Source: an uncultured Candidatus Saccharibacteria bacterium
Lineage (GTDB): Bacteria; Patescibacteriota; Minisyncoccia; Phycocordibacterales; 2-02-FULL-43-11
NCBI GenBank assembly: GCA_964348785.1
Contig: CAYGDO010000001.1
Span: 21,724 to 85,723, forward strand
Direction: 5' to 3'
Length of the DNA: 64,000 nt
Below the pieces are notes generated by a model. The model had not been told where the DNA came from, made no database searches, and saw only the letters and a program-made list of their open reading frames with translations. How positions within the stretch are numbered: the first letter of the stretch is position 1; each line of letters opens with the position of its first letter. This document shows positions 20,549 through 63,722 of the stretch, one piece after another. Position numbers and translations under genes: made by a program.

Positions 20549-20640
20549 AGCTCACACCTTTCTATCAATGAACTGTTAGAGTTGTTTAAAGTCTCACTCG
20601 CTAAATAATAACAGTTCTAAAAAAAATAATCCGAAGAAAT

Positions 20641-24865: not shown

Positions 24866-26347
24866 CTAAGATAATTTCCGAACAATTCCCTTATCAGCAT
24901 CAACTTCTATTATATCGCCATCTTTCAAAACTTTAGTAGCAATTTTAGTGCCAATAATACAAGTTTTATTTAATTCTCGACTGACGATCGCTGCGTGGCA
25001 AGTAATACCACCTTCATCAGTCACAATTGCACCTGACCTTTTCATAAGCGGAACAAATTCTGGCCTTGTCATACCAGTAACCAATATATCACCGTCTTTA
25101 AAATGTCCACCGAGTTCTGCATCAAGAATAATTCGTGCGATACCACGCACCTTACCCTTACAAGCAATCTGTCCTTTTATGATGTTTTCAACAGCCGGCT
25201 GTTCCAATTTAATATGATGCTCATTAATTTCTTTTTTTATTTCAACAAAATTATCATAATTAATTTTTATATCACCGTTAAACAACATATATATTATGTA
25301 ACCATCCGCCCTTTTTTCAATTTCTTTTTTAATAGATTTTATAAACTCAACACCTTTTGTAAGTTCCACAGTTGGCAAGACAAATCCAATATATTTTGGA
25401 TCAATACTTGCCTCTTTAAATATCCTTTCGGCTATACGCCAATTTACAGTTAAAACTTTAGCGAAAAAGTTTTTACGACGATCACGCACACGCATTACAG
25501 TCTGACAATAATCAGCAATGACTTTTTCTTCATCTAATAATTCTTTATACCACTTATTATATTCTTCAAGATTTTTTTTCTCATTAAAAAGAATCTCTTG
25601 CCTTTTATTTTCTGCATCAACTGTGTTTATGTCTCCGTATTTACTCATTAAACGTTTCCGAACTTCTGGCAACAATTGCACATCCCTGTAAGTTGCATAA
25701 AAGAATTGGCAATCTTCAGCTATCTCGGAAATCGTTTTACCTTGCGCAAGTAATGACAACCCAAAATATTCTTGCTCTCCGTCAAAAGATCTAAATATAG
25801 GCACCGTGGCTTTTTCCCATAATTTATCTAAATTTTCTTTTGTGATTGGATACTTTTTAGAAGAAAGAACGTTTGCGCACAATTCTTTATCAAAATAAAG
25901 CGAAAAATATAAAGATGAGTTAGAAATGTGAATTAAGTCAAAAGCTTTTTGTATCAATGGGTAAAGCACCTCTATGTTTTCATTCTTTATACGTTCATAT
26001 GTATATTCTTTATATATTTCATCAACCTGTCTTTCATTTTTGAGAAAATTATCTTCAAGATTTTTTGTAAAAAAACGATCATCCAAATAACGATTAAAAC
26101 CCTCTATTGAGTCATTAACAATTGGGTTCGTAGGTAAATATACCGTCAAGCTTTCTCCGTCATTTATATTTAACGCGGAATAATTAAAATGTTTCGTATA
26201 CGGTGTAAGTTTAAAATATTTCTCAGTATTAAATCCTGAACTAAAATAAAAAAGCCCGCAATTATTCATGGGCCATATTTTACCGGTACCCACATCCCCT
26301 AAAAAACCTTCTAAAATCTGTTGTTCTGTATTTCTTGAAATCATCAA
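24866..26347 (-). CDS. PEP-utilising-enzyme mobile (phosphohistidine swivel) domain protein with novel N-terminal domain (paralogue G)
   Basis: 493 aa; C-terminus [46 protein letters not shown] matches PEP-utilizers mobile domain with catalytic His. Confidence 0.7.
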
Positions 26348-26402: not shown

Positions 26403-26945
26403 CTAAAAGTTCATCTTATACCAGTCCAAACCATAAGTATCCTGAATAAGGATTCTCTCGCCTTTCGCCCAAGTAGGATTTTTCCCTAATCCCAATAAAT
26501 CTATTGCTTCTTTTATATGTTCCTCACTGATACCTTCAATTTCTAAATATGCAGGCATCTTTGGATATTGGTCTATATCAAACTGCCAATCTTTATAAGA
26601 AAAAGATGTCCTATCTTTTTCTTGATGCGCATATTTCTCAAGTCCCAACTCTTCAAACAAATCCCCCAATTTTTCAGGTTCTTGAATATTAAAATTAATC
26701 TCTTTGTGTTTACGAACCACGCCCAATATATCAGATTTTGCCTTCCACGTTACTTCATGTTTACCTTCTGAATTAGACCGAATTCTCAAAAACCAAGGGT
26801 CTTCTCCTTCTTTGACTCCTTTTATTCGAAACCAATCAACAACCAGTCTTGTTTCTTGGATTTTCTTTGCACCAAGGGAATTTAATGCATTCTTTATGTT
26901 ATTCGCATCAATATCTAAAACTTTTGTTTCTATCTCATGTGCCAT
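26403..26945 (-). CDS. CYTH-domain protein (CyaB/thiamine-triphosphatase-like)
   Basis: 180 aa; N-terminal EIETKVL (ExExK) signature. Confidence 0.55.
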   Translation of the reverse strand: MAHEIETKVLDIDANNIKNALNSLGAKKIQETRLVVDWFRIKGVKEGEDPWFLRIRSNSEGKHEVTWKAKSDILGVVRKHKEINFNIQEPEKLGDLFEELGLEKYAHQEKDRTSFSYKDWQFDIDQYPKMPAYLEIEGISEEHIKEAIDLLGLGKNPTWAKGERILIQDTYGLDWYKMNF

Positions 26946-26969: not shown

Positions 26970-27527
26970 CTATAAATTACTTACTGTTTTTTGATACAAT
27001 TCATTCAAATCTTTATCCTCAAATTTAATTTGTTCGATAAATTTACGAGCGCCCTTAGACATTCGTCTATACATAAAGATTATTTTATCTCTAGTTTGTT
27101 CTTCGCTATGTGTCTTTCTATACCAAGGAACAGAACCTTCAAAATAAGAAAGGCTGTCAGAATCAGTAAGAATTTGTAAATCATTATCATTACCTCCGAC
27201 TTCGTGATTTTTAATCAAGTATTCTACCTTCTTAATATCATCAGAAGGAAAATTAAACTTTGACATCAAACTTGCTACCATACGAGCAGATTTTTCTGCA
27301 TGAACTTGTTTATATTTTTCATAACTTTCATAATTTTCGCGTCTTTCTCTATCCGGGAAACTTCGTTCATAATCGTGAGCAAGAATCGCTATTTGCAAAG
27401 GGATATCAGCATCTGGCTTTTGTTTTAAAACCCACTTCCATGCGAGTTGAGAATGTGCGTTCTCATCAAATTCAGATTTTTTTAACTGATTTTCTATTTC
27501 TTTTTTAATTAAAACAAAATTTTCCAT
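26970..27527 (-). CDS. HD-domain protein
   Basis: 185 aa; ILAHDYERSF motif. Confidence 0.45.
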   Translation of the reverse strand: MENFVLIKKEIENQLKKSEFDENAHSQLAWKWVLKQKPDADIPLQIAILAHDYERSFPDRERRENYESYEKYKQVHAEKSARMVASLMSKFNFPSDDIKKVEYLIKNHEVGGNDNDLQILTDSDSLSYFEGSVPWYRKTHSEEQTRDKIIFMYRRMSKGARKFIEQIKFEDKDLNELYQKTVSNL

Positions 27528-28109: not shown

Positions 28110-28277
28110 ACGTGATTACACTTCTCGACTTCGACTCAAAGTTCGCCGTCTCTCACTTTGGTCTAGTCACCAGCTCGTCCGTTTCTTTTACTAAAGAAAC
28201 ATGACTCCGCTGTTCGAGTCCAAGTCGTAAGCAAAGCAGTTTACTTACTTCCCCACAGTTTTTCACTGCGTTACAAA

Positions 28278-28348
28278 CTGGGGGACTTGGACTCGAACCA
28301 AGATACTAGGCTTCAAAGGCCCATGTCCTACCATTAGACGATCCCCCA
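28278..28348 (-). tRNA. tRNA-Gln (anticodon TTG)
   Basis: Reverse strand folds as cloverleaf: acceptor TGGGGGA/TCCCCCA, D arm GTCT..GGAC, anticodon stem TGGGC/GCCTA with loop CTTTGAA, T arm CTTGG-TTCGAGT-CCAAG, discriminator G; CCA not encoded. Confidence 0.8.
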
Positions 28349-28577
28349 ATATTTAAAACTCAATCCTATACATTCAATCTTCACATTCGCCCTTCTGGGC
28401 TCAGTACTCCTTCGTTCTCACTCGGTCGCTGGGCTCAGTGTTTCCTCACACCACAAGGGCACTTCCAATTTCATAGTCGCTTCACTCCTTGAAATTTAGG
28501 TCGCTCTCGCTCGGTCATAAAATACCTTTTTTTGGTTAAAATTTCAACCCGATTTCTTATATTTGATATTTAATTTT

Positions 28578-32440: not shown

Positions 32441-32456
32441 ATCCCAGCGTGGTTAT

Positions 32457-33587
32457 TCACCACCCGAGACGAAAGAAGCGTGAGGGCTCGAGTGCTCTCC
32501 CCACAACCACACCACGGTCGTAGATCGGGACTGTCCCGATATTGACCGGGTACTTGCCCGGCCAAATGGGATAGTCATAGACAGGAGCCCACGGACCCCG
32601 AGCGTCCGTCGCTGAGTACAATCGGGCCTGCTGGCTCCCGGTCGCTTGGAAGTCCATGAAGACTTGCCCCGCCCGAGAAATTTCCAACGTGAACGAAATC
32701 GGTGGCGAATAGCCCACCGGCAGGTCCAATCGGAGTTCCGCGAGGAGCTTTCCGGTAATGGCGCCCCAAACCCGATACCAGAAAACGTACTTGTTACAGG
32801 ACTGAAAGTCCCGTTGAATCTGGTAAAGATCACCAGAATACCTGGCCTCCTTGGCGGTGTAGAAACCGAGGGAATACAACTCATTCACACCCTGATAGTC
32901 AGGACCGGCCCGGATTGACTTGTCGTCACTCGTGCCCTTCCGACCATCGGGTCCGTATTGCACTCCTTGATTGGCGAAGCCGTAATCACCCAACCCGTAA
33001 TTCCAGAAGCTGTCGGTCCAGGGGTTTACTCCCCGAGAACCGTACTCGACTCGCTCGAGATTAACCGGCTCCGGCGATTGACGAATGGCGAGAAGTGCCA
33101 CCACTCGTGTACCCTGTTGAATGCACTCTTCGGATCGCAACTCCTGATTTCTCCAGAATCGAACGTTGCTTCCAGTGGCATCAACGAAGTCGTGCCACGC
33201 CAGTCCAGCGACCGGTGTAAAATCGGTAGGGGTATTCTGAACCGGGCTGGCCCCGCGTCCAGTCTGCAACCAACGCATGGCGTTCAAATTCCATGCATCC
33301 ACCGAGCATTCGGATGCCGGCGAAACGGCAATAGTGATGTCAGCGATGACTCCCGCGGCAAGGTAATTATTGGCAGGAGGGATTCCTTGCTTGGGATACC
33401 AGTCCCAGCTCTTCCAATCCTCCGCCCACGGATCCGTATCCGTGTAGAAGTGGATGGGCGCCGGTGTCCCGCACCCGTCACACCCGATAGTGGCCGGTTG
33501 GGTCACCGCGCCACCAATGGTGGCTTGGCCGAAGAGGTTGAGAACGAAACCGAAGACGAATCCGAGGGTAACGATACTGGTTTTCAT
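32457..33587 (-). CDS. GC-rich secreted hypothetical protein (Trp/Tyr/Gly-rich)
   Basis: 376 aa with N-terminal signal peptide; strongly GC-biased codons unlike neighbours. Confidence 0.5.
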   Translation of the reverse strand: MKTSIVTLGFVFGFVLNLFGQATIGGAVTQPATIGCDGCGTPAPIHFYTDTDPWAEDWKSWDWYPKQGIPPANNYLAAGVIADITIAVSPASECSVDAWNLNAMRWLQTGRGASPVQNTPTDFTPVAGLAWHDFVDATGSNVRFWRNQELRSEECIQQGTRVVALLAIRQSPEPVNLERVEYGSRGVNPWTDSFWNYGLGDYGFANQGVQYGPDGRKGTSDDKSIRAGPDYQGVNELYSLGFYTAKEARYSGDLYQIQRDFQSCNKYVFWYRVWGAITGKLLAELRLDLPVGYSPPISFTLEISRAGQVFMDFQATGSQQARLYSATDARGPWAPVYDYPIWPGKYPVNIGTVPIYDRGVVVGRALEPSRFFRLGW

Positions 33588-34087
33588 GGATTTCTGAGTG
33601 TCGAGGGTTGTTTGTGAAAAAGTTTTTTCGCTTCTTCCCTTATTTTTTTAGAAAAGAGCGAAACTCATCTCTTATTACTATAAAATTGACGAAAAGTCAA
33701 TGATATTGGGAATGAAAAAATGAAATCAAATTATGCTATTTTATTAATAAAATATTTTTACAAATTTACTATTTTTTCACACATACACCATTTTTTCGCT
33801 ATAGTGAAAAAATGGTGTATAGGTATTTGTTGTTTAATTGTTGTTTGAAATTTATTCACCCTAAAAATTTTATGGAAAATATTTTTTAACTATACTTTCT
33901 TTATAAAAATCAAAAAACAAATGCTTTGTAAAATAACTGTTGTTCAGTAATAAAATTGGGGGTCCATCCTATAAACTTTTTTGACATGTAAAATTTAGAA
34001 ACAAATCTAAAAATGTACAAAAGCAAAAGATAGTTTATAAAAAAGTTTTTAGGATAAATAAAAAAGACCCAGCATCTAGGACCCTTC

Positions 34088-50186: not shown

Positions 50187-50672
50187 TCAAATCTCACCGA
50201 AAAGTCGGTGGACAGAGATAACCCGTTCATAGTAAAACCTTGCATCTCTAGGCCACCGACGCATCATCTGACATTCTTCAAGGTAGGCCGTCCTAATAAT
50301 AAAAAAGTAGTAGGCTCCCGCGATGAGGAGTGCAAGGGCAGAATGATCGTAAGCAAGAAACACCAAATCAGCGACGATGTACGATGCGTAGGCGGGATGG
50401 GCGACAAACCGAAACGGTCCGTCCACTTTTAGCCTGAGGGCCCCCTGAACCATTTGTCGTGATAGGGAAAACAACACCCAACCGACAAACAAGATCCAAA
50501 GGACGATACCGACCTTGAGGAAAACGATGTGTTCCTGGGGCGCCTTCGCCCACAGAAAACGGTACGAAAACCAGTACCGGACGACCGCCAAGGCCATCAT
50601 CAGATACCAGTTGAAGTTGGAACGAAAAGACAAAGAGCTTGTATTCATGACTCGCGAGAAATTAACACTCAA
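50187..50672 (-). CDS. isoprenylcysteine carboxyl methyltransferase (ICMT/PEMT)-family membrane methyltransferase
   Basis: 161 aa; GPFRFVAHPAYASYIV motif. Confidence 0.6.
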   Translation of the reverse strand: MSVNFSRVMNTSSLSFRSNFNWYLMMALAVVRYWFSYRFLWAKAPQEHIVFLKVGIVLWILFVGWVLFSLSRQMVQGALRLKVDGPFRFVAHPAYASYIVADLVFLAYDHSALALLIAGAYYFFIIRTAYLEECQMMRRWPRDARFYYERVISVHRLFGEI

Positions 50673-50743
50673 TTATTGATATGTCAAACATTTATACCCG
50701 GTCTTGAATAATCAAAAATTTTAGAATAAACTATCCCCTACTT

Positions 50744-50827
50744 GCCGCGGTGGCGGAATTGGCAGACGCACGGGACTCAAAATCCCGCGATCGCGAGGTC
50801 ATGAGGGTTCAACTCCCTCCCGCGGCA
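50744..50827 (+). tRNA. tRNA-Leu (anticodon CAA)
   Basis: GCCGCGG acceptor, anticodon stem CGGGA/TCCCG with loop CTCAAAA, long variable arm, T arm GAGGGTTCAACTCCCTC, discriminator A. Confidence 0.8.
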
Positions 50828-50940
50828 TCAATCCTTACCTAGCTTTCAAAGAAAGCGTCAGGTGGGAGTTGAAGCCTTGTTGAGAAATTTTATAAGCGTA
50901 GCGAAATAAAATATCCAACAAGGGGACTGAAACTGTAAGT

Positions 50941-53379: not shown

Positions 53380-53438
53380 AATTATGATTTTATCTTGTAA
53401 ATATAAATTAAATAAATTTCTTTAAATTCTATCACCTG

Positions 53439-53450
53439 CTTCTAACGGGA
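53439..53450 (+). repeat. CTTCTAACGGGA motif copy (upstream of GC-rich histidine phosphatase)
   Basis: same motif at 54395-54407 (+), 63738-63746 (+, partial), 54295-54307 (-), 34512-34523 (-), degenerate 61642-61653. Confidence 0.6.
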
Positions 53451-53594
53451 CAAGTCAAAAAATCTAATAATTTAGACCTTAAATTTAACATAATTTTAGA
53501 CCTTTTCTGAATTTGACTATTTACCACAAAAATGTTATTGTCCTTTTTGGATTCTTTTCCAACAACAGGCAAACCTCAACCTCAATCCTGAATA

Positions 53595-54236
53595 ATGAAC
53601 ACCACACCCAAAATCTGGGAATTGGTCAGTGTCCTTATCCTCGCCCGGCACGGCAAAGCCGTCGCCGCCGAAGGTCGCCCAGACGCCGAACGCAAGCTCA
53701 ACGAACTCGGGATCGCCCAGGCCAACGCCCTCGGCTTCTCCGTTCAAAAGCTCGAGATCGACATCGTTCTGTCATCCCCGCTCAAGCGGGTGGTGAGCAC
53801 CATGCGCACCGCGACCAACGACACTATCCCGATCCATCCGGTCGCCGAACTCACCTGCTCGGATGATCCGATTGACCCGATCCAGATCATGTGGGGCAAG
53901 CTCGGCAATGTCCCCATCTCTCGATACTTCGCTGAGGCCGCCGGCGAATATCTCAAGGTCTGGGGGCAAACAGCCCTCGGTGCCATCATCCGCGAACTCC
54001 AAAATGGCGGACACGACCAGAAGGTTCTCGTCGGCGGACATGCCGTTCTCCAGAATGCCCTCTTATGGGCAATCTCCCAGTCAGTCTCCGAGGACTGCTG
54101 GGCGGCGGCAGGAATGGACGAGGTCAATGAAATAGCCTGCCAAAACCTTCTCGGAGAAGGCGAGGCCTTCGTCCTGAGATTCCCATCACATGAGGCCGGT
54201 GTCACCACATGTGAACACCTCCGCCCCATGGCGTAA
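53595..54236 (+). CDS. histidine phosphatase superfamily protein (SixA/PGM-like), GC-rich
   Basis: 213 aa; LILARHGKA (RHG), SSPLKRVVSTM, VGGHA motifs; TTGACT-N17-TATTGT promoter-like upstream. Confidence 0.6.
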   Translation: MNTTPKIWELVSVLILARHGKAVAAEGRPDAERKLNELGIAQANALGFSVQKLEIDIVLSSPLKRVVSTMRTATNDTIPIHPVAELTCSDDPIDPIQIMWGKLGNVPISRYFAEAAGEYLKVWGQTALGAIIRELQNGGHDQKVLVGGHAVLQNALLWAISQSVSEDCWAAAGMDEVNEIACQNLLGEGEAFVLRFPSHEAGVTTCEHLRPMA

Positions 54237-54265
54237 CTCCGCTCACCCAGTTCTTTCTCTCAAGT

Positions 54266-54292
54266 CCCGATCCGCATCGGGGCTTTTTTATT
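54266..54292 (+). terminator. rho-independent terminator
   Basis: CCCGAT-ccgc-ATCGGGG + CTTTTTTATTT. Confidence 0.6.
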
Positions 54293-54294
54293 TA

Positions 54295-54307
54295 CCCCGT
54301 TAGAAGC
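54295..54307 (-). repeat. CTTCTAACGGGG motif copy (inverted) just after the histidine-phosphatase terminator
   Basis: ccccgttagaagc. Confidence 0.6.
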
Positions 54308-54394
54308 AACGTACACCAAATTTAAACCAAGAGACATTCTTAAAATTAATTTTAATCTAAAACCTACCAGAAAATGTTTGACCGGCCGTGTCCC

Positions 54395-54407
54395 GCTTCT
54401 AACGGGG
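54395..54407 (+). repeat. GCTTCTAACGGGG motif copy at the downstream boundary of the swivel-domain array
   Basis: gtgtcccgcttctaacggggt; close match to reverse complement of 34512-34535. Confidence 0.6.
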
Positions 54408-54440: not shown

Positions 54441-55727
54441 TTAACTACTTTTTATAATTTTTACTACACCCTTCTCCGCATCAACCTCTACCAAATCACC
54501 ATCTTTAAGAACTTTCGTGGCAATTTTGGTACCAATGATACAAGGCTTTTTCATTTCTCTAGCGACAATCGCAGCGTGAGAAGTTATCCCTCCTTCATCC
54601 GTGATAAAAGCTGAGGCTTTATTCATACCAATAATATACGAGGGCGCAGTAGTTGGAGCAACCAAAATATCTCCTTCTTTTACTTTTTCAATTTCATAAG
54701 CAGTCATTACAATTTTCACCGTCCCCCTTAAAACACCCTTATACGCAATTGCACCTTTTAACTCTTTAACATCGGCATAATCAGAAATAGCTAAAATCGG
54801 GCCTTCAAACAAAACTTGCTCCTCACCCATACCTACACAAGATACATTTTTATAAAACTTTAATTCACCAGAAATTAAACTATCGAAATCATACCACTTC
54901 AAATCTTCGAATTTAATTTTATATAAACTAGCGACCTCCTTTAAAATAGGCCTTAATCTATACATAAATTCCCAAAGGACATCCGTCCTAAATGTCCTGA
55001 AATAGACTAATTCTTGAGTGGCGACCACTAGATCTGATAATTCATCTGGTACATTCGGTCGATTAAATTTTTCTGTTATCCCATCTTTTTTAAGCCTTTG
55101 CCTTTCGGATGATAATTCCTCAATACTGTAAGGTTCGCCAAAGCCATCCCTTATTTTTATCCAGCCAAATTCTTGTTGAATTTTCTCCAAATCATCATCC
55201 CCCAAAAGAGCTTCTAAAAAATATGAATGCTTATTTTTCTTAACAGGATAACTAACATCACCAATAAATTTATTTATATCGCCTTGATAATATTTTGGTA
55301 TCTCTAATTTTAATTTATTTAAGTATAAATGTTCGAAAGCGTGTGTTAGCCAGGTATAAGCTATATTTTCACGAATCAATTTTCTAATTTCCATTAATTT
55401 ATCAGGGACCCGATCAGATGAATCTAAAATAGATTTTACCCTTTTTTTACCACTCTCATAAAATTTTTCACAATTACTTACAACCTCAAACAAATCAATT
55501 TTATTTTTGATTAATAAATCAACCTGTATATCCAAGACCTTGAGTGATTTATAAAAAGCACCGTTTTGAAATAAAAAAGCTTTTTGTTCCCAGTTTAAAC
55601 CAATTGTTTTAAAAGTCTGATAGCCATTTGCCATAAGAGAAAGCACAAAAGCTCCAAATGGACGATCCGCCCAATGTTCCCAATCATTGTAATCTAAAAC
55701 TTTCTTTTTTATTTCCTCTTTTGTCAT
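54441..55727 (-). CDS. PEP-utilising phosphohistidine swivel-domain protein, paralogue A (no ATP-grasp domain)
   Basis: 428 aa; C-terminus [46 protein letters not shown]. Confidence 0.7.
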   Translation of the reverse strand: MTKEEIKKKVLDYNDWEHWADRPFGAFVLSLMANGYQTFKTIGLNWEQKAFLFQNGAFYKSLKVLDIQVDLLIKNKIDLFEVVSNCEKFYESGKKRVKSILDSSDRVPDKLMEIRKLIRENIAYTWLTHAFEHLYLNKLKLEIPKYYQGDINKFIGDVSYPVKKNKHSYFLEALLGDDDLEKIQQEFGWIKIRDGFGEPYSIEELSSERQRLKKDGITEKFNRPNVPDELSDLVVATQELVYFRTFRTDVLWEFMYRLRPILKEVASLYKIKFEDLKWYDFDSLISGELKFYKNVSCVGMGEEQVLFEGPILAISDYADVKELKGAIAYKGVLRGTVKIVMTAYEIEKVKEGDILVAPTTAPSYIIGMNKASAFITDEGGITSHAAIVAREMKKPCIIGTKIATKVLKDGDLVEVDAEKGVVKIIKSS

Positions 55728-57175
55728 TTATTTAAAATCCTAACAACTCCACTGTTTGCGTCAACCTCCACCAAATCCCCGTCTTTAAGAACTTTCGTAG
55801 CAATTTTAGTGCCAATGATACAGGGTTTATGCATTTCGCGAGCCATGATGGCAGCATGGCAAGTAATCCCCCCTTCATCAGTAACAAATGCTACAGCTTT
55901 TTCTAAAGCAGGCATAAATGATGGAATAGTCATTGGAGCAACAACCACATCTCCTTTTTGGACTTTAACATTATCTGCGTCAGTTTTAAGAATTTTTACA
56001 ACCCCAGTTGCAAATCCTTTGTACGCAATTTTTCCCTTTAGTTCCTTTTGGTCATCATTTTGTCTTTTCAAAAAAGAATGGTTTTCGATAAATTTTTCAA
56101 CCTCACCCCCTTCCAAAACTACCGGTTCACCTAATCCGTAATAAATCAAAAAATTCTTTTTTCTTTCTTCAATATTTTTTTTATAATCTAATTTTCCTCG
56201 TAAAGCCAAAACTATTTCAGGAACACATAAATTGAGCATATTGTTGTAAGAAACATTAAGCACAAAGGCCACCTTAGACAGCAAAGGTCTAATGTGATAA
56301 CCCGATTCATGAAAGAAATCAGCGCGTTGATTCCTGACAAAAATTATTTCTCTAATTTTATCAACTATTTTTTTATCATCTACACTAAAATTTTTTGTTA
56401 AAACTTTAATTTTTTCTTCTTTTTCGAGTCGTTTATTCAATCTTTTTTCTAATTCTTTTTTTGCTTCTTCTTTAGAAATATTGTTAAGTCTATTCAATAC
56501 ATCCTCAGTCCTCCACGGCTCACCCAAGAAAAATCTCAAAGAAATCCAACCATATTTTTTAGCATGTTTACTGGCCAGTTCTTCTTTATTTAAAACATCA
56601 CTCGAAGCCAAAATTAAAAAATCTTTCTGTTCTTCTTCAACAACAGTATCTTTATTTGATACTGAAATGGCACTTAGTAATTCTTCAAACTCCTTTTCAT
56701 CTTTTGAATATTTTTTAACAAGACTCTTTGCAATATCAGTGGTCGGACCTTCAAATTGAGTTATGTTGTAAAAAACCGTGTACTTTATTTCTGTATCAAA
56801 AAACTCTTCCATCAACCTTGCTAATTCCTCATGATCTTCAATAAACAATGATTTTGCCGATAATTCCTTACATCTTTCCTGTAACTCATTGCCGAAAACC
56901 ATACATTTTTTAACCAACTCACTGACATAATCTAAGCCCTTAGAAGAAAATTTAAATTTTATTTCTTCTTCCTGCTTTTTTAAATCATTAATAAATTGAT
57001 AGAAAAAATAATTAACTTGTAACCATCTAACCAAAGTGTCTAAATCAAAAATTTCCTTTGTGGCTCTTTTATCCAACATTCCCCCAATTAAAAGATGGGA
57101 AATCATATAAGGCTCGATTCTCTCTCCAAAATAAACAATGTCCTCCTTTTTTAAATTTTCCAACTCTTTTGTCAT
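55724..57175 (-). CDS. PEP-utilising swivel-domain protein, paralogue B
   Basis: 483 aa; C-terminus [46 protein letters not shown]; 4-nt overlap with A. Confidence 0.7.
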   Translation of the reverse strand: MTKELENLKKEDIVYFGERIEPYMISHLLIGGMLDKRATKEIFDLDTLVRWLQVNYFFYQFINDLKKQEEEIKFKFSSKGLDYVSELVKKCMVFGNELQERCKELSAKSLFIEDHEELARLMEEFFDTEIKYTVFYNITQFEGPTTDIAKSLVKKYSKDEKEFEELLSAISVSNKDTVVEEEQKDFLILASSDVLNKEELASKHAKKYGWISLRFFLGEPWRTEDVLNRLNNISKEEAKKELEKRLNKRLEKEEKIKVLTKNFSVDDKKIVDKIREIIFVRNQRADFFHESGYHIRPLLSKVAFVLNVSYNNMLNLCVPEIVLALRGKLDYKKNIEERKKNFLIYYGLGEPVVLEGGEVEKFIENHSFLKRQNDDQKELKGKIAYKGFATGVVKILKTDADNVKVQKGDVVVAPMTIPSFMPALEKAVAFVTDEGGITCHAAIMAREMHKPCIIGTKIATKVLKDGDLVEVDANSGVVRILNK

Positions 57176-58632
57176 TTATTTAAAATCCTAACAACTCCCT
57201 TCTCCGCATCAACTTCTACCAAATCGCCGTCTTTAAAAACGTCAGTGGCGTTATTTATACCTACAACACAAGGAATCCCTAATTCACGAGAAACAACGGA
57301 CACATGAGCAGTAATGCCTCCATCTTCAGCCACCACGCCAGAAGCCTGGATCAAAACTGGCATAAAATCCGGACTCGTATTGGCCGCTATTAAAATATCA
57401 CCCTTATTAAACTTCTTAAAATCTTCCCCAGACAATACAACCTTAGCTATTCCTTTTGCAAATCCTTTTGAGGCCACTCTGCCTTTAAATTCTTTCTTAC
57501 CAATATCCTTATTTATCAAAAACCTTTCTTCAAACTTTTTAGCATCTTTTCCTAAAAGAATATTCAATTTGTTAGGAACGGCAATAACAATATTATATTT
57601 CGATCTTTCTTTGACCAAACTTTCGTCAGGCATCTGTCCACCTAGCGCAAATTCGATTATCTCCCTAGGATGTAAATCTTTTATAAAACCTATCGAGACA
57701 TCCTTCCTCCTTGCCAATTCCCCAAACAAAGGTTCGGCATAATACTCCAGCTTGTTTATACAAGATTTGTAATAATCTTTAAGATATGTAGCGAAAGATG
57801 CAATTCTTGCCAATTCTTTACCCTTTTCATCAAGTGATTTAACTAAATTTTCATAAGTTTTTTTATCATCAACAATTTTTTTCAAAAAATTATTTCTCTT
57901 TTGCGTAGGATTATCTTTTAATAAACCATCCAGCGTATTTTTGTAATCATTATATTCTTTAGGCTTTTCATCAAAATAACCCATAACGCCCCAAGCATAT
58001 TTACCAACAATTTCCGCAATTTTTTCTTTAATAGATTGAGAATTTATATCTTCTTTTTTTTCAAAAATAGAGGATGCTAGGTTGAGCAAATCTAATTCTT
58101 CAGATACAGATAACGTTGGCTTAATGGGTTGGGCTAAATTTATAATTATCTGATCAACATCAGATTGATTTAAAAAATGTTCCCTAATCTTTTTAACAAC
58201 AACTCTATCCAAAATTCTTAAAGTGCCCGCCGTCACCATAAATTCCCAATAAAACGTAAAATAACTATCGAAGACTTCAGCCAAATCATCATCTGTTAAT
58301 TTATTTAAATCCTTCAAAAATATTTTCTTTACGCCTTGTTCCATCTTTTCGGTAAGATATTTTTCCATTTCTTCCAATAACCCTTTATCTTTCCAAAAAC
58401 GATCAAAAACTTTTTGAAAATCTTCGTCGCTTAAAACAAAAATCCATTTTACATAGTGTTCGTTCATTAAAGAAATAATAAAACCTGTATGGGGCCAAAT
58501 TGTATGTATCTGTGAATATTGTGTAGTTATTAAATAGCATGGGTAAAAATAAGAAACACGGCCACCTTCTGAGTAAAGCTGTTTATTTTCAAAAATATTC
58601 CAATCAATTTTTTCATCTCCTTCAAAATTCAT
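57172..58632 (-). CDS. PEP-utilising swivel-domain protein, paralogue C
   Basis: 486 aa; C-terminus EDGGITAHVSVVSRELGIPCVVGINNATDVFKDGDLVEVDAEKGVV. Confidence 0.7.
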   Translation of the reverse strand: MNFEGDEKIDWNIFENKQLYSEGGRVSYFYPCYLITTQYSQIHTIWPHTGFIISLMNEHYVKWIFVLSDEDFQKVFDRFWKDKGLLEEMEKYLTEKMEQGVKKIFLKDLNKLTDDDLAEVFDSYFTFYWEFMVTAGTLRILDRVVVKKIREHFLNQSDVDQIIINLAQPIKPTLSVSEELDLLNLASSIFEKKEDINSQSIKEKIAEIVGKYAWGVMGYFDEKPKEYNDYKNTLDGLLKDNPTQKRNNFLKKIVDDKKTYENLVKSLDEKGKELARIASFATYLKDYYKSCINKLEYYAEPLFGELARRKDVSIGFIKDLHPREIIEFALGGQMPDESLVKERSKYNIVIAVPNKLNILLGKDAKKFEERFLINKDIGKKEFKGRVASKGFAKGIAKVVLSGEDFKKFNKGDILIAANTSPDFMPVLIQASGVVAEDGGITAHVSVVSRELGIPCVVGINNATDVFKDGDLVEVDAEKGVVRILNK

Positions 58633-58645
58633 AAAATTTACTTAA

Positions 58646-60040
58646 TTACAATGAATTGTTTTTAAGAATTGTGACCACACCCCTCTCCGCATCAACTTCC
58701 ACCACGTCACCGTCCTTAAGAACTTTAGTGGCGATTTTGGTGCCAATGATACATGGCTTTTTCATTTCCCGTGCAACAATAGCGGCATGAGAACTTATGC
58801 CCCCTTCATCAGTCACAAATGCCCCGGCAATTTTCATAAAAGGTAAAAATTCTGGTCTGGTCATGCTTGTAACTAAAATCTCTCCTTCTTCCATTTTTTT
58901 AGCATCTTCAGAGTGTGGATTCAAAATAACTCTCACTCTTCCTTTAACTAATCCCTTACAAGCCACAGAGCCTTTCAAATCAATATTTTTAGACTCTTGA
59001 GTATTTAAAACCTGTTCAACCATTTTCCAACATTTTTGACCTTCTTCAGAAAAATAATAATTATACTCTCCGTCTTCTGTCATGTGAACAAAAAAGCCTT
59101 CCTCTATTCTCTTTTTCAAATCATTTTCAGCTACAGTAGCAAAAAATAATTCCTCTACTCTATCAGGAATAAGACCGTTTAATAATTTTAAATCAATTTT
59201 CTGTCTTTTAGCTACCTCCCTTAAAATTTTCAACATTCCAAACAAACCAACGTAATTCAGTCTTTTTCTTTCATCACGCCATTTGGTTAATAAAACAAAT
59301 ACATCATATGGATTTTTATCAAGACCATATTTCTTTAAAATTAACTTCTTGTCAGGAGCTTCGATAATTTTTGATTCATCTAATTTTTGTAATTCAAGAT
59401 CAATAAAACCATCATCCACTTCAACAAAAGAAGAATAGTCTATTCCGTACCAGAAAAAAAGTTTCTTTAATTCATCTCTTGTTATTATCCCATTCTTTAA
59501 GTCAGACAATTTCTTATCCCATAAAGTAATAAATGATGGCTCATCTGGAATAAGAAGACTTTGTTTTTCTTCAATACCAAATTTATAGTTATTAGAAATC
59601 TTTTCTATCTCTTCGTGATCAATCCCTATATCAAAAGAATCTATAAAAATTCCACATGCCCACATTTCAAGATCCTTCTTATAAATTTCGTTATATCTTT
59701 TTATAAGATCTTCAATGTCTATAGAAGATAAATCAGTTTTGTATATTTCATACGATAGTAGTGTTAACTCTTTATCTAAAATATTCCAATCTTTTAGCCA
59801 ATCATCTACCCCTCCATCCTCAAATTTATTTAAAAAAGATTCTGATACTTTTCTCCATTGATCTTCATAAAAAGCAGCCCATAGATAATTATTTTTATAA
59901 AACAAAAAACCCTCACCCCAACTAAAAGGGAGATACTTCTGCATCATCTTACCTGCCGTCATGTACGGTAAAATAACTTGAAAGGCCCCGCATTTTCCTT
60001 CTTGTTTATAAAGTTTTCTATTGGGGTCTATTTTTATCAT
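58646..60040 (-). CDS. PEP-utilising swivel-domain protein, paralogue D
   Basis: 464 aa; C-terminus [46 protein letters not shown]. Confidence 0.7.
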   Translation of the reverse strand: MIKIDPNRKLYKQEGKCGAFQVILPYMTAGKMMQKYLPFSWGEGFLFYKNNYLWAAFYEDQWRKVSESFLNKFEDGGVDDWLKDWNILDKELTLLSYEIYKTDLSSIDIEDLIKRYNEIYKKDLEMWACGIFIDSFDIGIDHEEIEKISNNYKFGIEEKQSLLIPDEPSFITLWDKKLSDLKNGIITRDELKKLFFWYGIDYSSFVEVDDGFIDLELQKLDESKIIEAPDKKLILKKYGLDKNPYDVFVLLTKWRDERKRLNYVGLFGMLKILREVAKRQKIDLKLLNGLIPDRVEELFFATVAENDLKKRIEEGFFVHMTEDGEYNYYFSEEGQKCWKMVEQVLNTQESKNIDLKGSVACKGLVKGRVRVILNPHSEDAKKMEEGEILVTSMTRPEFLPFMKIAGAFVTDEGGISSHAAIVAREMKKPCIIGTKIATKVLKDGDVVEVDAERGVVTILKNNSL

Positions 60041-60073
60041 TTTTCATTTAGCAGACAAAGTCTTAATCAGTCT

Positions 60074-61573
60074 TTAATCTTCTTCGTATCTTTTAATAAT
60101 CTTTACAACACCTTCATTTACATTAACTTCTACCAAATCCCCATCTTTCAAAACTTTCGTGGCAATTTTCGTGCCGATAATGCAGGGAATTCCCAACTCT
60201 CTTGAAATAATCGCTGCGTGGCAAGCAATACCGCCTTCGTTTGTAATAATCGCTTTTGCTTTTCTCATTAATGGCACGAACTCAATTCTGGTCATTGATG
60301 TAACCAGAATCTCTCCGTCTTCAAAAATATCCTTGGAGGGATCAAGTACTACTCTGACTTTTCCTGAGAAATTACTTACACCTCCTCTACTTGCAACTTG
60401 TCCTTTTACAAAACCCTCGAATTTAAAAGCTGTCGCTACTGAAAAAAGCTCCTTGGCTTCGCCATCATAGAATATTTTCGCATTTTGTCCTTTTTCCCAT
60501 ACCATAAAAACTCCCGCTTTTCTTCTTCTTATCTCTTCCACATTTAATTTATATTCACTTTCTAAACATTTACCGAACTCATCAAAAGTATAAACCGCTA
60601 AATCCTCATAAGGAATATTGGATACTTTAGCAGTATGATCCATAGTCATTGCCAAGTAATAAAAAAATCTCATCATTCCGATTTTTCTTAAATCAATCCA
60701 CTGAATAACAAGTTTCGCAAAAGCTAAATCTCTTTTATCTATTTCGGTTAGCTCTATTGTACCCAGAATTTTTTTACGATTTTCATGTAAGACATCAAAA
60801 TTTTGTCTATTTTTTTCTATTTCCAATTCAATGCCCTCTTTTTTATTCTTAGAAATTTCAACGTAAACTTCTTTTAGAATTTTTTCCGGAGTAGTTTCTT
60901 CAGCCTTATAAAAATCACTTCGGAACCAAAAATACTTATCAATGTAACTTTTAATATTTTCTTTAAGAATTTTTCCAGAGGATACTTCAATGCAAATCCT
61001 CAAGAAATCCTCTCTTTCAAGATTGAAAACGGTTGGTTCTTCCGGATGTGCCAAAGTATTAAATATCTCATCTGCCTTATTAATTTCTAAATTATGACGT
61101 TTGGCAAAATGAGGAACTATTTCCTTATTTATAATAGCCCCCTTATCCTCCCAAAGAGAACAATAATGAAACCACTCTCCTGAAAGAATCGAAAATTTTT
61201 TATAAAAATCAAAAATTTTCTCTTTTGAATAAGTCGCGCCATTTTTAAAATATTCTTCCCAAGCTTTTTCTATCTCCTTTTCCAAAAAAATCTGACGTTC
61301 TATCATTTTATCTGCGCTCTTTGGATCACGTAAATAATCGTCGTATACTTTTTTAGCAATATCCTCAATTATCTTCTTAGCATTAAATTGATGGAACGAA
61401 CCCATCTTATCAAAAGAGAAAAAAGCGAAACCTGGACTGTATAGAACACCATGAAGCGAATCAGATTCTGTGTAAGACTTGAAAGCCATATCAAGCGCCA
61501 CCAAAGAGACGCCGGCAATAGCATTATCTAACTCATTATTTTTGAGATAGTTTATTATTTCGCCTTTTGTCAT
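60074..61573 (-). CDS. PEP-utilising swivel-domain protein, paralogue E
   Basis: 499 aa; C-terminus [46 protein letters not shown]. Confidence 0.7.
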   Translation of the reverse strand: MTKGEIINYLKNNELDNAIAGVSLVALDMAFKSYTESDSLHGVLYSPGFAFFSFDKMGSFHQFNAKKIIEDIAKKVYDDYLRDPKSADKMIERQIFLEKEIEKAWEEYFKNGATYSKEKIFDFYKKFSILSGEWFHYCSLWEDKGAIINKEIVPHFAKRHNLEINKADEIFNTLAHPEEPTVFNLEREDFLRICIEVSSGKILKENIKSYIDKYFWFRSDFYKAEETTPEKILKEVYVEISKNKKEGIELEIEKNRQNFDVLHENRKKILGTIELTEIDKRDLAFAKLVIQWIDLRKIGMMRFFYYLAMTMDHTAKVSNIPYEDLAVYTFDEFGKCLESEYKLNVEEIRRRKAGVFMVWEKGQNAKIFYDGEAKELFSVATAFKFEGFVKGQVASRGGVSNFSGKVRVVLDPSKDIFEDGEILVTSMTRIEFVPLMRKAKAIITNEGGIACHAAIISRELGIPCIIGTKIATKVLKDGDLVEVNVNEGVVKIIKRYEED

Positions 61574-61670
61574 AAGTTATTTTTTAGAATTGTGACTACC
61601 CCCTCTCCGCATCCATCCCAGTAGCAAAAATCAGAATTTCGCTACGGGACAAGCCTCCACCAATATATCA

Positions 61671-63722
61671 TTACTTACCCACTCTTTTAATTATTTTGAC
61701 AATGCCCTCGTTTGCATTAACTTCGACCTCATCACCGTCTTTCAAAACCTTCGTAGCAATTTTGGTGCCGATAATGCAAGGAATTCCTAATTCTCTAGAA
61801 ACTATTGCTGCATGAGATATTATTCCTCCCTCATCAGTTATGATTGCCCCAGCTTTTTTACAAGCCAATATCATTTCAGGGCCAGTAGAGCCCGCCACCA
61901 ACACTTCACCCTCCTTCATCATTTCTATTTCCGTCTTAAAATCAGTATCTGCGCTAAACATTATCTTTTTAACTTTCCCTTTATAAATTCCTTTATGTGC
62001 GACATTTCCCTTAAAACTCTCTAAATCTTTATCAACTTCTAAAAACTGCTTATAAAGAATTTCTGCTTCTTCACCCACGACATCTTCACCATTAGAAAAC
62101 AAGCCACGAACAATTGCGCCAGATCTTTTCGAAACTGAGATTTTGCGTCCACGTAACATTTCCACCAGTTCAGTGTATTTATAGTCCTCCACAGACAATT
62201 CAAGTGTAAGGCGTCTGGAAATTTCATCTAAAAAGGGCTTGAGAATATTAGGATCATACATTGTAAAATTAAGAAGTTTACGATATTCAAATTTTAATTC
62301 ACCAGCTTGTTTCAATTTTTTCTCTAAAGCAGGGTCTTTTTGCAACTTTGCAGCCACCAAATCTAAACTGTGATATTCCAAAGGAAAATAATTACGCCAC
62401 ATCTCTATAGACAAGATGGCTGATTTTTCCAAGAACTCTGCCAGTTCTTCATTCGAAAGCTTTTCCGTTTTTATCGTCAGTAATTCACTTATACTTTTTT
62501 CAAATTTCACCATCTTCTGTCTTAAGTCTGTCGTAAACTCTTCATATCTCTTAATAAATAAATTTAAACCTTCCTCCCCGAGTCTCTCGTGTTCAACCTT
62601 ACTAACAAAAAGACTGTTCGAACGCTCTTTGATAAAGAGGATAAAATCCTTATCTGCATAACCCGAATAGAAATGAGCGTCAGAAAAAATATACGGCACA
62701 CCAAACGTCCAAAGAAAATCATAATCTTTTACACTAGGAAAATTTTTAGGCTTTTCTTCTAAAATATCAATTTTCTTAGACAAAGTCGTAATTGGTCTCG
62801 ACTGAACAATATAGAATTTACCAGCCTCGTATGCCCATTCAATATCGCAAGGAAAACCATAGTGCTTTTCTATGCCGAGAATAATTTCCGACAATTCCAA
62901 AATTTGCTTTTCGCTTAATTTTTGCTTTTCGCCCTCAACGGCGGAAATATCTCTCCATTCATTTCCACCACCTACTTTCCTGAATAAGCCACGTTCCTGA
63001 ACGGAAATGTTTGAGTCAATAATTCTTCTTGGTTCTTTTTCTACAACATAAGAATCTGGCGTAATCTGTCCAGACACAATCGCTTCGCCAAGACCAAACC
63101 CGGCTTCAATAATCATCTGATTATAATCCTCTGTTACAGGGTGAACAGAAAAAGCGATTCCAGACACTTCGGATTCAACCATTTTTTGCACCACCACTGC
63201 CACAGAAATTTTTGTTTTATGTAAATCTTTTTCAAAACGATAAAAAATAGCACGAGGAGTAAACAAAGACGCCCAACACTTCCTCACATTTTTCAAAAGA
63301 TCAGACTCTTCTGTATTCAAAAAACTATCAAGTTGCCCTGCCCAAGCAGCAGAACTAGAATCTTCTGCCGTAGCAGAAGACCGAACAGCGACAAACCTAG
63401 CGCCTAACGCCTTAAAACCTTTCCTAATTTCCTCTCTAATATCTTCAGGCATTTCTTTTGCCAAAATCAAAGATTGAATTTGTTCTGATGCGTTTTCAAC
63501 TGTATGCATTTCAGCATGTTTTACCTTGTGAAGGATTGAATCTATTTCAATATTTAAATCTGTTTCTTCGCAAAATCTTTCAAAAGCACCAGCAAGAACA
63601 ACAAAACCCGGTGGAACCGGAATCCCCGCATTGGTCATTTCTCCAAGCGACGCACCTTTTCCTCCCGCAATTTCTGCATCATTTTTCGAAAGCTCTTTGA
63701 ATTCCTTGGTGAATTTTTGCAT
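61671..63722 (-). CDS. PEP synthase/rifampicin-phosphotransferase-like enzyme: N-terminal PEP/pyruvate-binding ATP-grasp domain (PPDK_N-like) + middle domain + C-terminal swivel domain, paralogue F
   Basis: 683 aa; N-terminus EIAGGKGASLGEMTNAGIPVPPGFVV... (PPDK_N), C-terminus [46 protein letters not shown]. Confidence 0.75.
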   Translation of the reverse strand: MQKFTKEFKELSKNDAEIAGGKGASLGEMTNAGIPVPPGFVVLAGAFERFCEETDLNIEIDSILHKVKHAEMHTVENASEQIQSLILAKEMPEDIREEIRKGFKALGARFVAVRSSATAEDSSSAAWAGQLDSFLNTEESDLLKNVRKCWASLFTPRAIFYRFEKDLHKTKISVAVVVQKMVESEVSGIAFSVHPVTEDYNQMIIEAGFGLGEAIVSGQITPDSYVVEKEPRRIIDSNISVQERGLFRKVGGGNEWRDISAVEGEKQKLSEKQILELSEIILGIEKHYGFPCDIEWAYEAGKFYIVQSRPITTLSKKIDILEEKPKNFPSVKDYDFLWTFGVPYIFSDAHFYSGYADKDFILFIKERSNSLFVSKVEHERLGEEGLNLFIKRYEEFTTDLRQKMVKFEKSISELLTIKTEKLSNEELAEFLEKSAILSIEMWRNYFPLEYHSLDLVAAKLQKDPALEKKLKQAGELKFEYRKLLNFTMYDPNILKPFLDEISRRLTLELSVEDYKYTELVEMLRGRKISVSKRSGAIVRGLFSNGEDVVGEEAEILYKQFLEVDKDLESFKGNVAHKGIYKGKVKKIMFSADTDFKTEIEMMKEGEVLVAGSTGPEMILACKKAGAIITDEGGIISHAAIVSRELGIPCIIGTKIATKVLKDGDEVEVNANEGIVKIIKRVGK

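Follow-up and report, generated by a model that had tools for sequence, protein, structure and literature searches.

How would a cluster of genes that all encode a phosphohistidine swivel domain have its histidines charged, if only one of the genes carries the ATP-grasp domain that normally does so, and what would the other genes then be for? The question is raised by the window, a stretch of 64,000 nucleotides from an uncultured Candidatus Saccharibacteria bacterium (contig CAYGDO010000001.1, positions 21,724 to 85,723), in which an original prediction, made from the sequence alone, had picked out six such genes in tandem.

Layout of the array and its swivel domains

The array consists of six co-directional ORFs, A–F, all on the minus strand between 54441 and 63722, in exact agreement with the prediction in coordinates, overlaps and spacers. 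Gene F (61671–63722, 683 aa) is the head of the array, and its product combines an ATP-grasp domain with a reduced helical domain in the middle and a swivel. Directly downstream of it, as a tight operon, are E (60074–61573, 499 aa), D (58646–60040, 464 aa), C (57172–58632, 486 aa), B (55724–57175, 483 aa) and A (54441–55727, 428 aa), each consisting of an N-domain and a swivel. The C/B and B/A junctions are 4-nt overlaps, and the remaining spacers are 13, 33 and 97 nt long. A seventh module, G (24866–26347, minus strand, 493 aa, TTG start), which the prediction had also listed, has the same N-domain plus swivel composition and is unlinked, 28 kb from the array. The source genome thus contains at least seven such genes, about 10.7 kb in total, and the identical arrangement was found on a 222-kb ENA contig and in two independent Logan assemblies. 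The window contains no rRNA. A terminator-like hairpin at 54262–54285, a consensus match only, lies in the convergent gap between a His_Phos_1 gene and gene A and may be the 3′ end of the array transcript. It is weak evidence for a terminator, since it was called on the plus strand, opposite to the array, and such sites are no commoner than in shuffled sequences. Promoter and terminator scans gave the same counts as in shuffled sequence and were therefore uninformative.

In Pfam searches, each of the seven proteins ended in a PF00391 swivel (E 1e-23 to 1e-28), and the catalytic His of the GGxxxH motif was invariant, both as predicted. This residue is His384 in A (codon 54576–54578), His440 in B (55856–55858), His443 in C (57304–57306), His418 in D (58787–58789), His452 in E (60218–60220), His637 in F (61812–61814) and His451 in G (24995–24997). 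The motif reads TDEGGIxxH or a close variant, such as TNEGG in E and AEDGG in C, and all seven proteins show the T/S-x-x-G-G-x-x-x-H swivel feature of the RPH/PpsAB/CreHI/HpeHI class. PF01326 (PPDK_N ATP-grasp) was found in F only (residues 17–318, E 1.6e-97), leaving six swivels, plus that of G, to one ATP-grasp, in place of the 1:1 ratio of that class. PHROG matches were limited to the swivel of a phage “kinase”.

The near-identical C-termini are not due to recent gene conversion or cassette shuffling, as their 3′ ends are just 61–75% identical in DNA sequence. Concerted evolution and domain shuffling were likewise rejected, because the swivels are nearer to those of N-domain orthologues in other genomes (60–82% identity) than to their paralogues in the same genome (mean 48–61%). 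Swivel identity was 57% within loci and 54% between loci.

A shared helical N-domain in the acceptor proteins

The N-domains had been described as mutually dissimilar stretches of 350–600 aa. In A–E and G they are about 320–390 aa long, and they turned out to be related. An HMM built solely from the N-domain columns of B's family, and run on N-domains trimmed of their swivels, detected C (E 2.5e-26), E (1.4e-19), A (3e-16) and D (1.5e-6), compared to an E-value of 0.05 for the best of 1,400 shuffled sequences. BLASTP matches among the N-domains were collinear. At the sequence level, A–E thus share one divergent N-domain, predicted to be all-helical, which G probably has as well (E 3.6e-3).

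In its model, the B N-domain is all-helical and folds like the rifampin-binding domain of rifampin phosphotransferase (RPH), being neither an ATP-grasp nor a TIM barrel. The N-domains of A–E are divergent paralogues of one such domain. The second-substrate domain is thus of the type found in RPH. Recognizing this link required structure comparison or the segment adjoining the swivel: the N-domain matched no Pfam or NCBIfam model, an N-domain-only profile had no meaningful match among PDB sequences, and the PRK08296 models (“hypothetical proteins” of about 570–630 aa ending in a swivel) aligned over the swivel only. In the adjoining segment, E 290–493 aligns with RPH-Lm 663–866, and the R281/R284 motif of B (56321–56338) with RPH R666–K670, the region of the Arg/Glu/Lys network (R666/E667/K670) that catalyses the second phosphotransfer in RPH. 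In one phmmer alignment and MAFFT, A, B, D and G have Arg at the position of RPH R666, where C has Lys and E has Ile; C, D, E and G have an acidic residue at the E667 position, and all but C carry an additional Arg at +3. The Lys in C and the Ile in E count against the mechanism proposed below, although E keeps a downstream R-K pair. With an N-domain resembling the RPH rifampin-binding domain and this conserved motif, A–E are HpeH/PpsA-like acceptor subunits. For every paralogue, the nearest relatives are found outside its own genome, indicating that the N-domains form ancient subfamilies, which presumably differ in substrate.

These results refute the reading of the genes as ordinary PEP synthase or PPDK paralogues whose ATP-grasp and PEP-binding modules have diverged but are still complete, the outcome that the original prediction had named as its own refutation and to which we assign practically no probability. 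The database names of the proteins (“pyruvate,water dikinase”, “PEP-utilizing enzyme”) suggest such an identity, and their swivel and ATP-grasp domains do score best on PEP synthase models. However, the PF02896 PEP/pyruvate TIM barrel had no match in any of the seven proteins at E ≤ 1, A–E and G have no PPDK_N in the same chain as their swivel, and scores on the NCBIfam PEP synthase model were far below the 598-bit cut-off (429 bits for F, about 100 for the others). The all-helical N-domain of B points the same way.

The resemblance to RPH raises the possibility that the modules serve, as RPH does, to inactivate antibiotics or toxins from hosts or competitors, and are not kinases of metabolism or scavenging. 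This concerns the role of the array and fits the proposed chemistry, but we consider it unlikely. The sole solved homologue of the N-domain inactivates an antibiotic, diversification among tandem paralogues is typical of arms races, and surveys of the CPR resistome have counted rph-like matches (PMC8651080). On the other hand, the subfamilies are old and have been kept throughout CPR and DPANN without rapid turnover, and the conserved pocket candidates of B are rich in Arg (R19, R214, R229, R281, R284 and R338), whereas the rifampin cleft of RPH is hydrophobic (PMC4844700). All scores were also far under the NCBIfam RPH cut-offs of 999 bits (NF041857) and 1700 bits (NF000283): F reached 325 and 226 bits, respectively, and A–E and G 49–73 and 36–59 bits. 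PADLOC, whose models describe anti-phage defence systems, gave no matches for any of the seven proteins, and a defence-system reading was rejected.

Gene F and the proposed charging of the array

In F, the ATP-grasp domain lies at 62769–63674 (minus strand, as for the other F domains), the helical middle domain (approximately residues 325–570) at 62013–62750 and the swivel (PF00391, residues 603–673) at 61704–61916. The AlphaFold2 model (pLDDT 91) had full-length RPH (5hv1) as its top Foldseek match (E 1e-38). The ATP-grasp matched the RPH ATP domain (5hv6) with a TM-score of 0.92 and 37% identity, as well as HpeI (9goj) with 36% identity, and K22 and R114 fall in invariant columns of the F family. 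The middle domain, in which R481, E518 and R533 are near-invariant, opens with the topology of the B N-domain in the model, but is shorter. Its sequence homology to the N-domains was not significant, and a pooled HMM of 34 “short modules” (swivel ORFs of about 360 aa) gave an E-value of 0.09, inside the shuffle range; both results count against our best explanation. The extra module of fused F-relatives (P0122, P0130) was rejected as an orthologue of E, the alignment being confined to its C-terminal part. Of the two architectures suggested for F in the original prediction, that of RPH holds and that of PEP synthase does not: having no PEP/pyruvate TIM barrel, F is an RPH-like head comprising ATP-grasp, reduced helical domain and swivel.

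We think it probable that the array is a one-to-many member of the RPH/PpsAB/HpeHI class of ATP-dependent small-molecule dikinases. The domain composition, the fold, the conserved His and Arg motif, the operon layout, the recurrence of arrays and the natural fusions described below point to this reading; by analogy with the known members, charging in trans by F, dikinase chemistry and small-molecule substrates would be expected. F would provide the sole ATP-grasp of the array. As in RPH and PpsAB, a swivel His would attack the β-phosphate of F-bound ATP and the γ-phosphate would be hydrolysed, leaving phospho-His. F would charge its own swivel in cis and those of A–E (and G) in trans, via transient complexes. 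Each charged swivel would then dock back onto its own helical N-domain, where the conserved R-(D)-x-R/K site, putatively equivalent to Arg666/Glu667/Lys670 of RPH, would pass the phosphate to a hydroxyl-type acceptor in a module-specific pocket, with the net reaction ATP + H2O + X-OH → AMP + Pi + X-O-P. Given the age and distinctness of the N-domain subfamilies, every module presumably has a compound of its own to phosphorylate; scavenged host metabolites and xenobiotics are candidates. The core idea of the original prediction, a diversified phosphotransfer family of small-molecule phosphotransferases that could be charged in trans, is thus retained, but the two alternatives that it offered, charging in trans or a phosphotransferase family, are really one mechanism.

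A survey of 80 loci in other genomes, most of them CPR or DPANN, showed that such arrays recur. Arrays with as many as about 12 modules are common, often with a lone ATP-grasp gene at one end, and related genomes have at least 10 modules inside a 20-kb locus or one 11-kb gene. In single polypeptides of 2,700–3,800 aa, one ATP-grasp is fused to 5–8 swivel modules. For each ATP-grasp, there are up to about 10 swivels in arrays and up to 8 in a single polypeptide. Genes of the protein-phosphatase type (His_Phos_1, LMWPc) are found repeatedly beside arrays. The 114 neighbours surveyed fell into 117 Pfam families, with no conserved operon partners and no shared pathway pointing to function; this absence of pathway neighbours counts against the proposed mechanism.

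Alternatively, the proteins could be independent enzymes, with F a self-contained dikinase and A–E and G charged by another donor (PEP, a phospho-metabolite or another kinase encoded elsewhere in the genome), or with A–E acting as pure phospho-exchange transferases between phospho-compounds and acceptors. F could indeed be self-sufficient, having both a swivel and a conserved middle domain of its own, and HpeH alone moves phosphate from 4-phosphoacetophenone to acetovanillone (PMC12167813). G is distant from the array, and no ATP-grasp was found within 10 kb at 49 of the 80 loci, including 20 of the 23 single-module loci, in a scan of contigs of which many were truncated. This count and the possible self-sufficiency of F are the other points that speak against the one-to-many reading. 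However, no protein has the PEP-binding TIM barrel, a lone ATP-grasp gene recurs at array ends, the fusions join one ATP-grasp to 5–8 swivels, and the overlapping genes downstream of F form a tight operon. We therefore regard independent enzymes as rather improbable.

A phosphorelay, in which F would charge only its own swivel and the phosphate would then pass from His to His to the swivels of A–E, with the F middle domain as a docking platform rather than a pocket, appears very unlikely. The short F middle domain, with no detectable sequence homology to the N-domains, would fit such a role, and a head unit of ATP-grasp, middle domain and swivel is conserved both in F's family and at the N-terminus of the polyproteins. 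In many arrays, however, the ATP-grasp gene is bare (311–331 aa) and has no swivel of its own, which argues that swivels are in general charged directly in trans, in the manner of HpeHI and PpsAB. We know of no precedent for phosphate transfer between swivels.

Relation to known systems and significance

Trans pairs of an ATP-grasp protein and an acceptor consisting of substrate domain and swivel have been characterized biochemically in PpsAB, CreHI and HpeHI (PMC12167813). In HpeHI and PpsAB, a separate ATP-grasp protein (HpeI/PpsB) charges HpeH/PpsA, in which a domain like the RPH rifampin-binding domain is followed by a C-terminal swivel His (PMC12167813). The array shares this split architecture, with a PEPS/RPH-type ATP-grasp in F immediately upstream of the acceptors. 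The known systems, however, are 1:1 pairs in aromatic-catabolism clusters, with an acceptor of about 600–650 aa. Here, one ATP-grasp adjoins five acceptors (plus G) of 428–499 aa from different subfamilies, with no catabolic neighbours, and its carrier has its own swivel, unlike HpeI and PpsB. The swivel motif is also the PEP-synthase-like GGxT[S/C]H, whereas Met has been reported where PEP synthase has a regulatory Thr (PMC12167813). The principle was therefore known, a correction to the original prediction, and only the one-to-many layout and its prevalence in CPR and DPANN appear to be new; we found no published description of such arrays.

RPH itself (RPH-Lm, PDB 5HV1/5FBS-U) is a single chain of 865 aa with one swivel, whereas A–E have no ATP-grasp and the F middle domain is only about 250 aa; identities are 13–21%. 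PEP synthase and PPDK are closest in the sequence of ATP-grasp and swivel (F against archaeal PEPS 8a8e, E 9.5e-98) and share the GGxT[S/C]HAAI motif, but the substrate domain here has another, helical fold and is N-terminal to the swivel. For PTS Enzyme I, the swivel alone matched, and not the HPr-binding α subdomain or the PEP-binding TIM barrel. VadK (Rv1127c) and the prodiginine ligases PigC/RedH/HapC, like the present proteins, are PPDK-derived, with ATP-grasp and swivel kept and the PEP/pyruvate domain replaced (PMC13400623; NCBIfam matches). PigC/RedH are single-chain ligases of about 880 aa, VadK is a protein His kinase without a substrate domain, and neither forms arrays or multi-swivel proteins.

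VadK of M. tuberculosis, an ATP-grasp plus swivel histidine kinase with protein partners (PMC13400623), could suggest that the present proteins are regulatory kinases with an autophosphorylated swivel His and helical N-domains for protein–protein regulation, and the phosphatase-type genes beside arrays would be in keeping with this. We hold it to be highly improbable, as the N-domain folds like the substrate domain of RPH and keeps the Arg motif for small-molecule transfer. VadK has no such domain.

CPR bacteria and DPANN archaea depend on other cells and their genomes are tiny, yet this one, from an ultra-small CPR bacterium, contains several such genes. That the family is retained and heavily diversified in streamlined genomes suggests that it matters for their lifestyle. 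Annotations give it only as “PEP-utilizing enzyme” or, wrongly, as “PEP synthase”, and the present assignment corrects those metabolic reconstructions in which the genes figure as a gluconeogenic PEP synthase. A multi-acceptor relative of RPH and HpeHI would provide a concrete mechanism, F-dependent His phosphorylation, and, if true, one ATP-grasp shared by many swivels, eight of them on one chain, would be a new organization of the swivelling-domain mechanism. The two-part kinase as such is known; its multi-acceptor form is widespread in CPR bacteria and DPANN archaea and uncharacterized. We tentatively suggest that a single ATP-grasp “charger” serving a battery of substrate-specific phospho-His acceptors, whether arrayed as up to twelve genes or joined in polyproteins, may be a platform common to both groups, and a major undescribed means for episymbionts to capture or neutralize many small molecules from their hosts and surroundings.

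The array and its ATP-grasp protein

The array at 54441–63722 consists of six co-directional minus-strand genes, as the original prediction had placed them: F (683 aa) heads it, followed in the ORF listing by E (499 aa), D (464 aa), C (486 aa), B (483 aa) and A (428 aa). The expected two 4-nt overlaps are at the C/B and B/A junctions, and the remaining spacers are indeed short (13, 33 and 97 nt). The predicted seventh paralogue was found as G (24866–26347), which encodes 493 aa from a TTG start. Pfam searches with the seven proteins placed the PEP-utilizers swivel (PF00391) at every C-terminus (E 1e-23 to 1e-28) and the PPDK_N ATP-grasp (PF01326) in F only (E 1.6e-97), while the PEP/pyruvate TIM barrel (PF02896) was found in none of them. 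The histidine of GGxxxH is invariant across all seven, so the proposed C-terminal swivel with its catalytic residue is present in every copy, and the grasp is confined to F. The order F-E-D-C-B-A also occurs on a 222-kb ENA contig and in two independent Logan assemblies; the array is therefore real and not an assembly artefact. Its upstream neighbours are a DUF378 gene and a divergent miaA; on the downstream side follows a His_Phos_1 gene in convergent orientation.

F had been described as built like PEP synthase or rifampin phosphotransferase (RPH), and only the second likeness held. The predicted model (pLDDT 91, pTM 0.56, with a flexible linker at 317–324) is laid out as ATP-grasp, ≈250-aa helical region and swivel, and its best structural match was full-length RPH (E 1e-38, ≈900 columns). 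The grasp superimposed on the RPH ATP domain (5hv6) with a TM score of 0.92 and 37% identity, and was 36% identical to HpeI (9goj). Invariant columns of the F family include K22 and R114, which are collinear with RPH Lys22 and Arg117 and presumably equivalent to them residue by residue. In the models, the middle region opens with the same strand-helix-hairpin-helix topology as the B N-domain; R481, E518 and R533 are near-invariant, and “FEYRKLLNFTMY” may be the counterpart of “IGYREYPKYGMI” in RPH. With the PEP synthase model F reached 429 bits, where the cut-off is 598, and the PF02896 barrel is missing; F is therefore RPH-like and not a PEP synthase. The reading of the modules as ordinary PEP synthase paralogues is refuted.

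In PEP synthase and PPDK, the threonine two residues before the catalytic histidine is a regulatory phosphorylation site. A, B, C and G retain this threonine (GGIT[S/C/A]H), but D has Ser there, E has Ala and F has Ile. A Met is reported at the corresponding position of RPH and HpeH (PMC12167813).

Diverged N-domains with an RPH-like motif

The N-domains preceding the swivels had been called unrelated, which is wrong for A–E and probably for G. No model for the A–E and G N-domain was found in Pfam or NCBIfam. BLASTP with swivel-trimmed regions gave collinear matches for B–C (4e-9), A–B (1e-6), B–E (7e-4) and C–E (8e-4). An HMM made from only the N-domain columns of 66 B-family proteins matched C (2.5e-26), E (1.4e-19), A (3e-16), D (1.5e-6) and G (3.6e-3), compared to a best E-value of 0.05 among 1,400 shuffled control sequences; the F middle region did not match it significantly (0.13). 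Since these matches are all more significant than the best shuffled control, the N-domains of A–E are, judged by sequence, deeply diverged paralogues of one domain, to which that of G probably also belongs.

The predicted model of B has the fold of the RPH rifampin-binding domain. The RPH segment IGY-R666-E667-YP-K670-YGM aligned with IQWIDLRKIGMM in E, and through the paralogue alignment the R666 region aligns with a family motif R-D-x-R-K (FRTFRT in A, VRNQRA in B, LKDYYK in C, WRDERK in D and VRDRRK in G), of which R281 and R284 are invariant throughout the B family. In RPH, the second phosphotransfer, in which rifampin receives the phosphate from phospho-His, requires both Arg666 and Glu667 (PMC4844700). 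A–E and G thus look like catalytically competent RPH-type “substrate domain plus swivel” proteins, with the caveat that C has Lys and E has Ile in place of the first Arg. The invariant residues of the B family are rich in arginine (R19, R214, R229, R281, R284 and R338), which hints at an anionic acceptor. We hold with considerable confidence that the modules as such are RPH/HpeH-type dikinase modules; that they are instead VadK-like regulatory kinases seems most improbable. Residues 198–255 of B (gene 55724–57175), which include the conserved HAKKYGW...R...G.PW segment, match PF24741 (“AlkZ-rel”) in Pfam just below the threshold (E 3.8e-5, 23.7 vs. 26.5 bits); a match to this family is also precomputed for P0009, an N-terminal fragment homologue.

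The best N-domain identities in other genomes were 43% for A, 44% for B, 36% for C, 38% for E, 29% for G and 26% for D (E down to 1e-110, with some archaeal relatives), compared to at most 22% within their own genome. The swivels follow the same pattern, with 60–82% identity to those of orthologues vs. a mean of 48–61% to their own paralogues (57% within vs. 54% between loci), and the 3' ends of the array genes share 61–75% DNA identity. Thus, the array brings together ancient subfamilies, each evolving as an N+swivel unit. Recent expansion, gene conversion and domain shuffling were rejected on these identities. The striking conservation of one 23-residue stretch is due to family-wide purifying selection. 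That the subfamilies are ancient and conserved counts somewhat against an arms-race role, i.e., toxin inactivation rather than metabolite capture.

Genomic neighbourhood

The His_Phos_1 gene (53595–54236, plus strand, 213 aa), convergent with gene A, lies in an island of ≈60% GC (53400–54400) within surroundings of ≈30–33%. Because this arrangement is also present on the 222-kb contig, it is better explained by horizontal transfer than by chimerism. The best NCBIfam match of the protein was SixA, a phospho-His phosphatase, far below the cut-off (27.7 vs. 74.5 bits), and the protein shares 31% identity with a His_Phos_1 ORF adjoining an N+swivel gene pair at locus L037. A second GC-rich patch (50187–50829, 48–51% GC) holds a 161-aa minus-strand ORF (50187–50672) and tRNA-Leu(CAA) (50743–50829); tRNA-Gln(TTG) (28277–28349) is the sole other RNA gene, and no rRNA was found in the window. 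In the ORF list, three more stretches (12487–14186, 19148–20608 and 32453–33617) show clustered long ORFs that overlap one another on both strands. Locally GC-rich DNA such as the His_Phos_1 island typically gives this pattern, and these stretches may also be foreign. Beside G lie an ORF with weak likeness to nucleoside 2-deoxyribosyltransferases (24424–24813), a CYTH domain protein (26403–26945) and a DUF4202 protein (26970–27527); at locus L003, a DUF4202/HD gene lies ≈7 kb from a B-like gene pair.

No conserved array partner emerged from 114 flanking ORFs at homologous loci (L009–L088), which spread over 117 Pfam families. Several families recurred among them (His_Phos_1 and LMWPc three times each, HAD and HD twice each, Fic four times), each with fewer than two members among 150 control ORFs taken from the same loci at distances above 2.5 kb. 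With a post hoc grouping, and depending on unseen singletons, Fisher's p ranged from 0.0002 to 0.03; the recurrence of phosphatase-type genes and Fic beside arrays is thus suggestive only. At L001, a singleton module is followed immediately downstream by a HAD hydrolase gene. None of the seven swivel proteins had a PADLOC match.

A proposed single charger for many acceptors

Charging in trans, as the original prediction had envisaged, is already an established mechanism for 1:1 pairs through work on HpeHI, characterised in a 2025 study, and on CreHI and PpsAB, reviewed there (PMC12167813). HpeI, CreI and PpsB are separate ATP-grasp subunits that charge HpeH, CreH and PpsA, which consist of an RPH-like substrate domain and a swivel; activity is lost when the His is mutated, the complex forms only transiently, and RPH is the same arrangement in fused form (PMC12167813). 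Whereas these systems pair one grasp with one acceptor, the window array has one grasp and many putative acceptors.

By analogy with RPH, PpsAB and HpeHI, ATP would be bound by the grasp of F, and the swivel His would attack the β-phosphate, the γ-phosphate leaving as Pi. The swivel of F itself would be charged in cis, and those of A–E and G in trans. Each phospho-His swivel would then return to the helical domain of its own protein, and the R-x-x-R/K site there would pass the phosphate to a bound acceptor, presumably a small molecule, according to ATP + H2O + X-OH → AMP + Pi + X-O-P, with X differing per subfamily. We favour this overall picture, with some reserve.

With B as query, more than 4,000 relatives were retrieved. 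Most are swivel-only proteins of ≈480 aa that belong to Patescibacteria and DPANN archaea and carry no more specific name than “PEP-utilizing enzyme” in the database. An exhaustive search with the N-domain HMM gave 2,671 cluster representatives (814 at E ≤ 1e-10), mostly of 460–520 aa; some reach 900–2,300 aa with 2–4 N-domain stretches. Eighty loci from GTDB species representatives, annotated with local HMMs, were labelled by record title mostly as CPR phyla and Woese-, Micr-, Pace-, Nano- and Undinarchaeota. Sixteen carry other labels, including Planctomycetota, Clostridium and ten third-party “uncultured Gammaproteobacteria” MAGs; going by these labels and the 57% GC of L037, the family also occurs outside low-GC CPR and DPANN.

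The loci contain 309 swivel modules, with at least two family genes in 53, at least three modules in 44, at least five in 27 and uninterrupted runs of at least five genes in 14. These counts, and those of the grasp below, are minima, given the many truncated contigs. In each of the 80 loci, all family genes point the same way. An ATP-grasp is present in 31 loci, and in 21 of these it is a lone gene of 311–331 aa, placed first or last among the family genes in 17. The closest relatives of F (1,000–1,190 aa) have a grasp-mid-swivel-N-swivel layout with two PF00391 matches. In uninterrupted ORFs from Woesearchaeota (L076, 3,761 aa), Parcubacteria (L078, 3,111 aa) and Nanoarchaeota (L061, 2,711 aa), one grasp is fused to eight, seven and five swivels, respectively, each with GGxxxH. 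With many swivels physically tethered to a single grasp, these ORFs argue strongly, on comparative grounds, for one charger that serves many acceptors. That some other donor charges A–E independently of F is unlikely. A His-to-His relay via the swivel of F is more doubtful still, since many arrays have a bare grasp gene without a swivel.

An archaeal 2,374-aa polyprotein (L018, 2778–9902) has its grasp at the C-terminus (N-S ×4, S, G), and the swivel beside it (residues 1923–2025) is the only one seen among the large fusions to lack the GGxxxH His. A shorter module class is frequent in arrays and polyproteins (L013–L088), with ORFs of ≈340–390 aa (median ≈362 aa) that comprise a ≈250-aa unrecognised region and a swivel, about as long as F would be without its grasp. 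The pooled modules had no significant similarity to the F middle domain (E 0.09) and may be heterogeneous.

No description of these arrays was found in open-access papers or bioRxiv with CPR or DPANN combined with PEP-utilizing, phosphohistidine, dikinase or RPH; a resistome survey merely counted rph-like matches in CPR genomes (PMC8651080). What appears new here is a multi-acceptor form of the two-component RPH-type dikinase, encoded in arrays or polyproteins, one-to-many and widespread.
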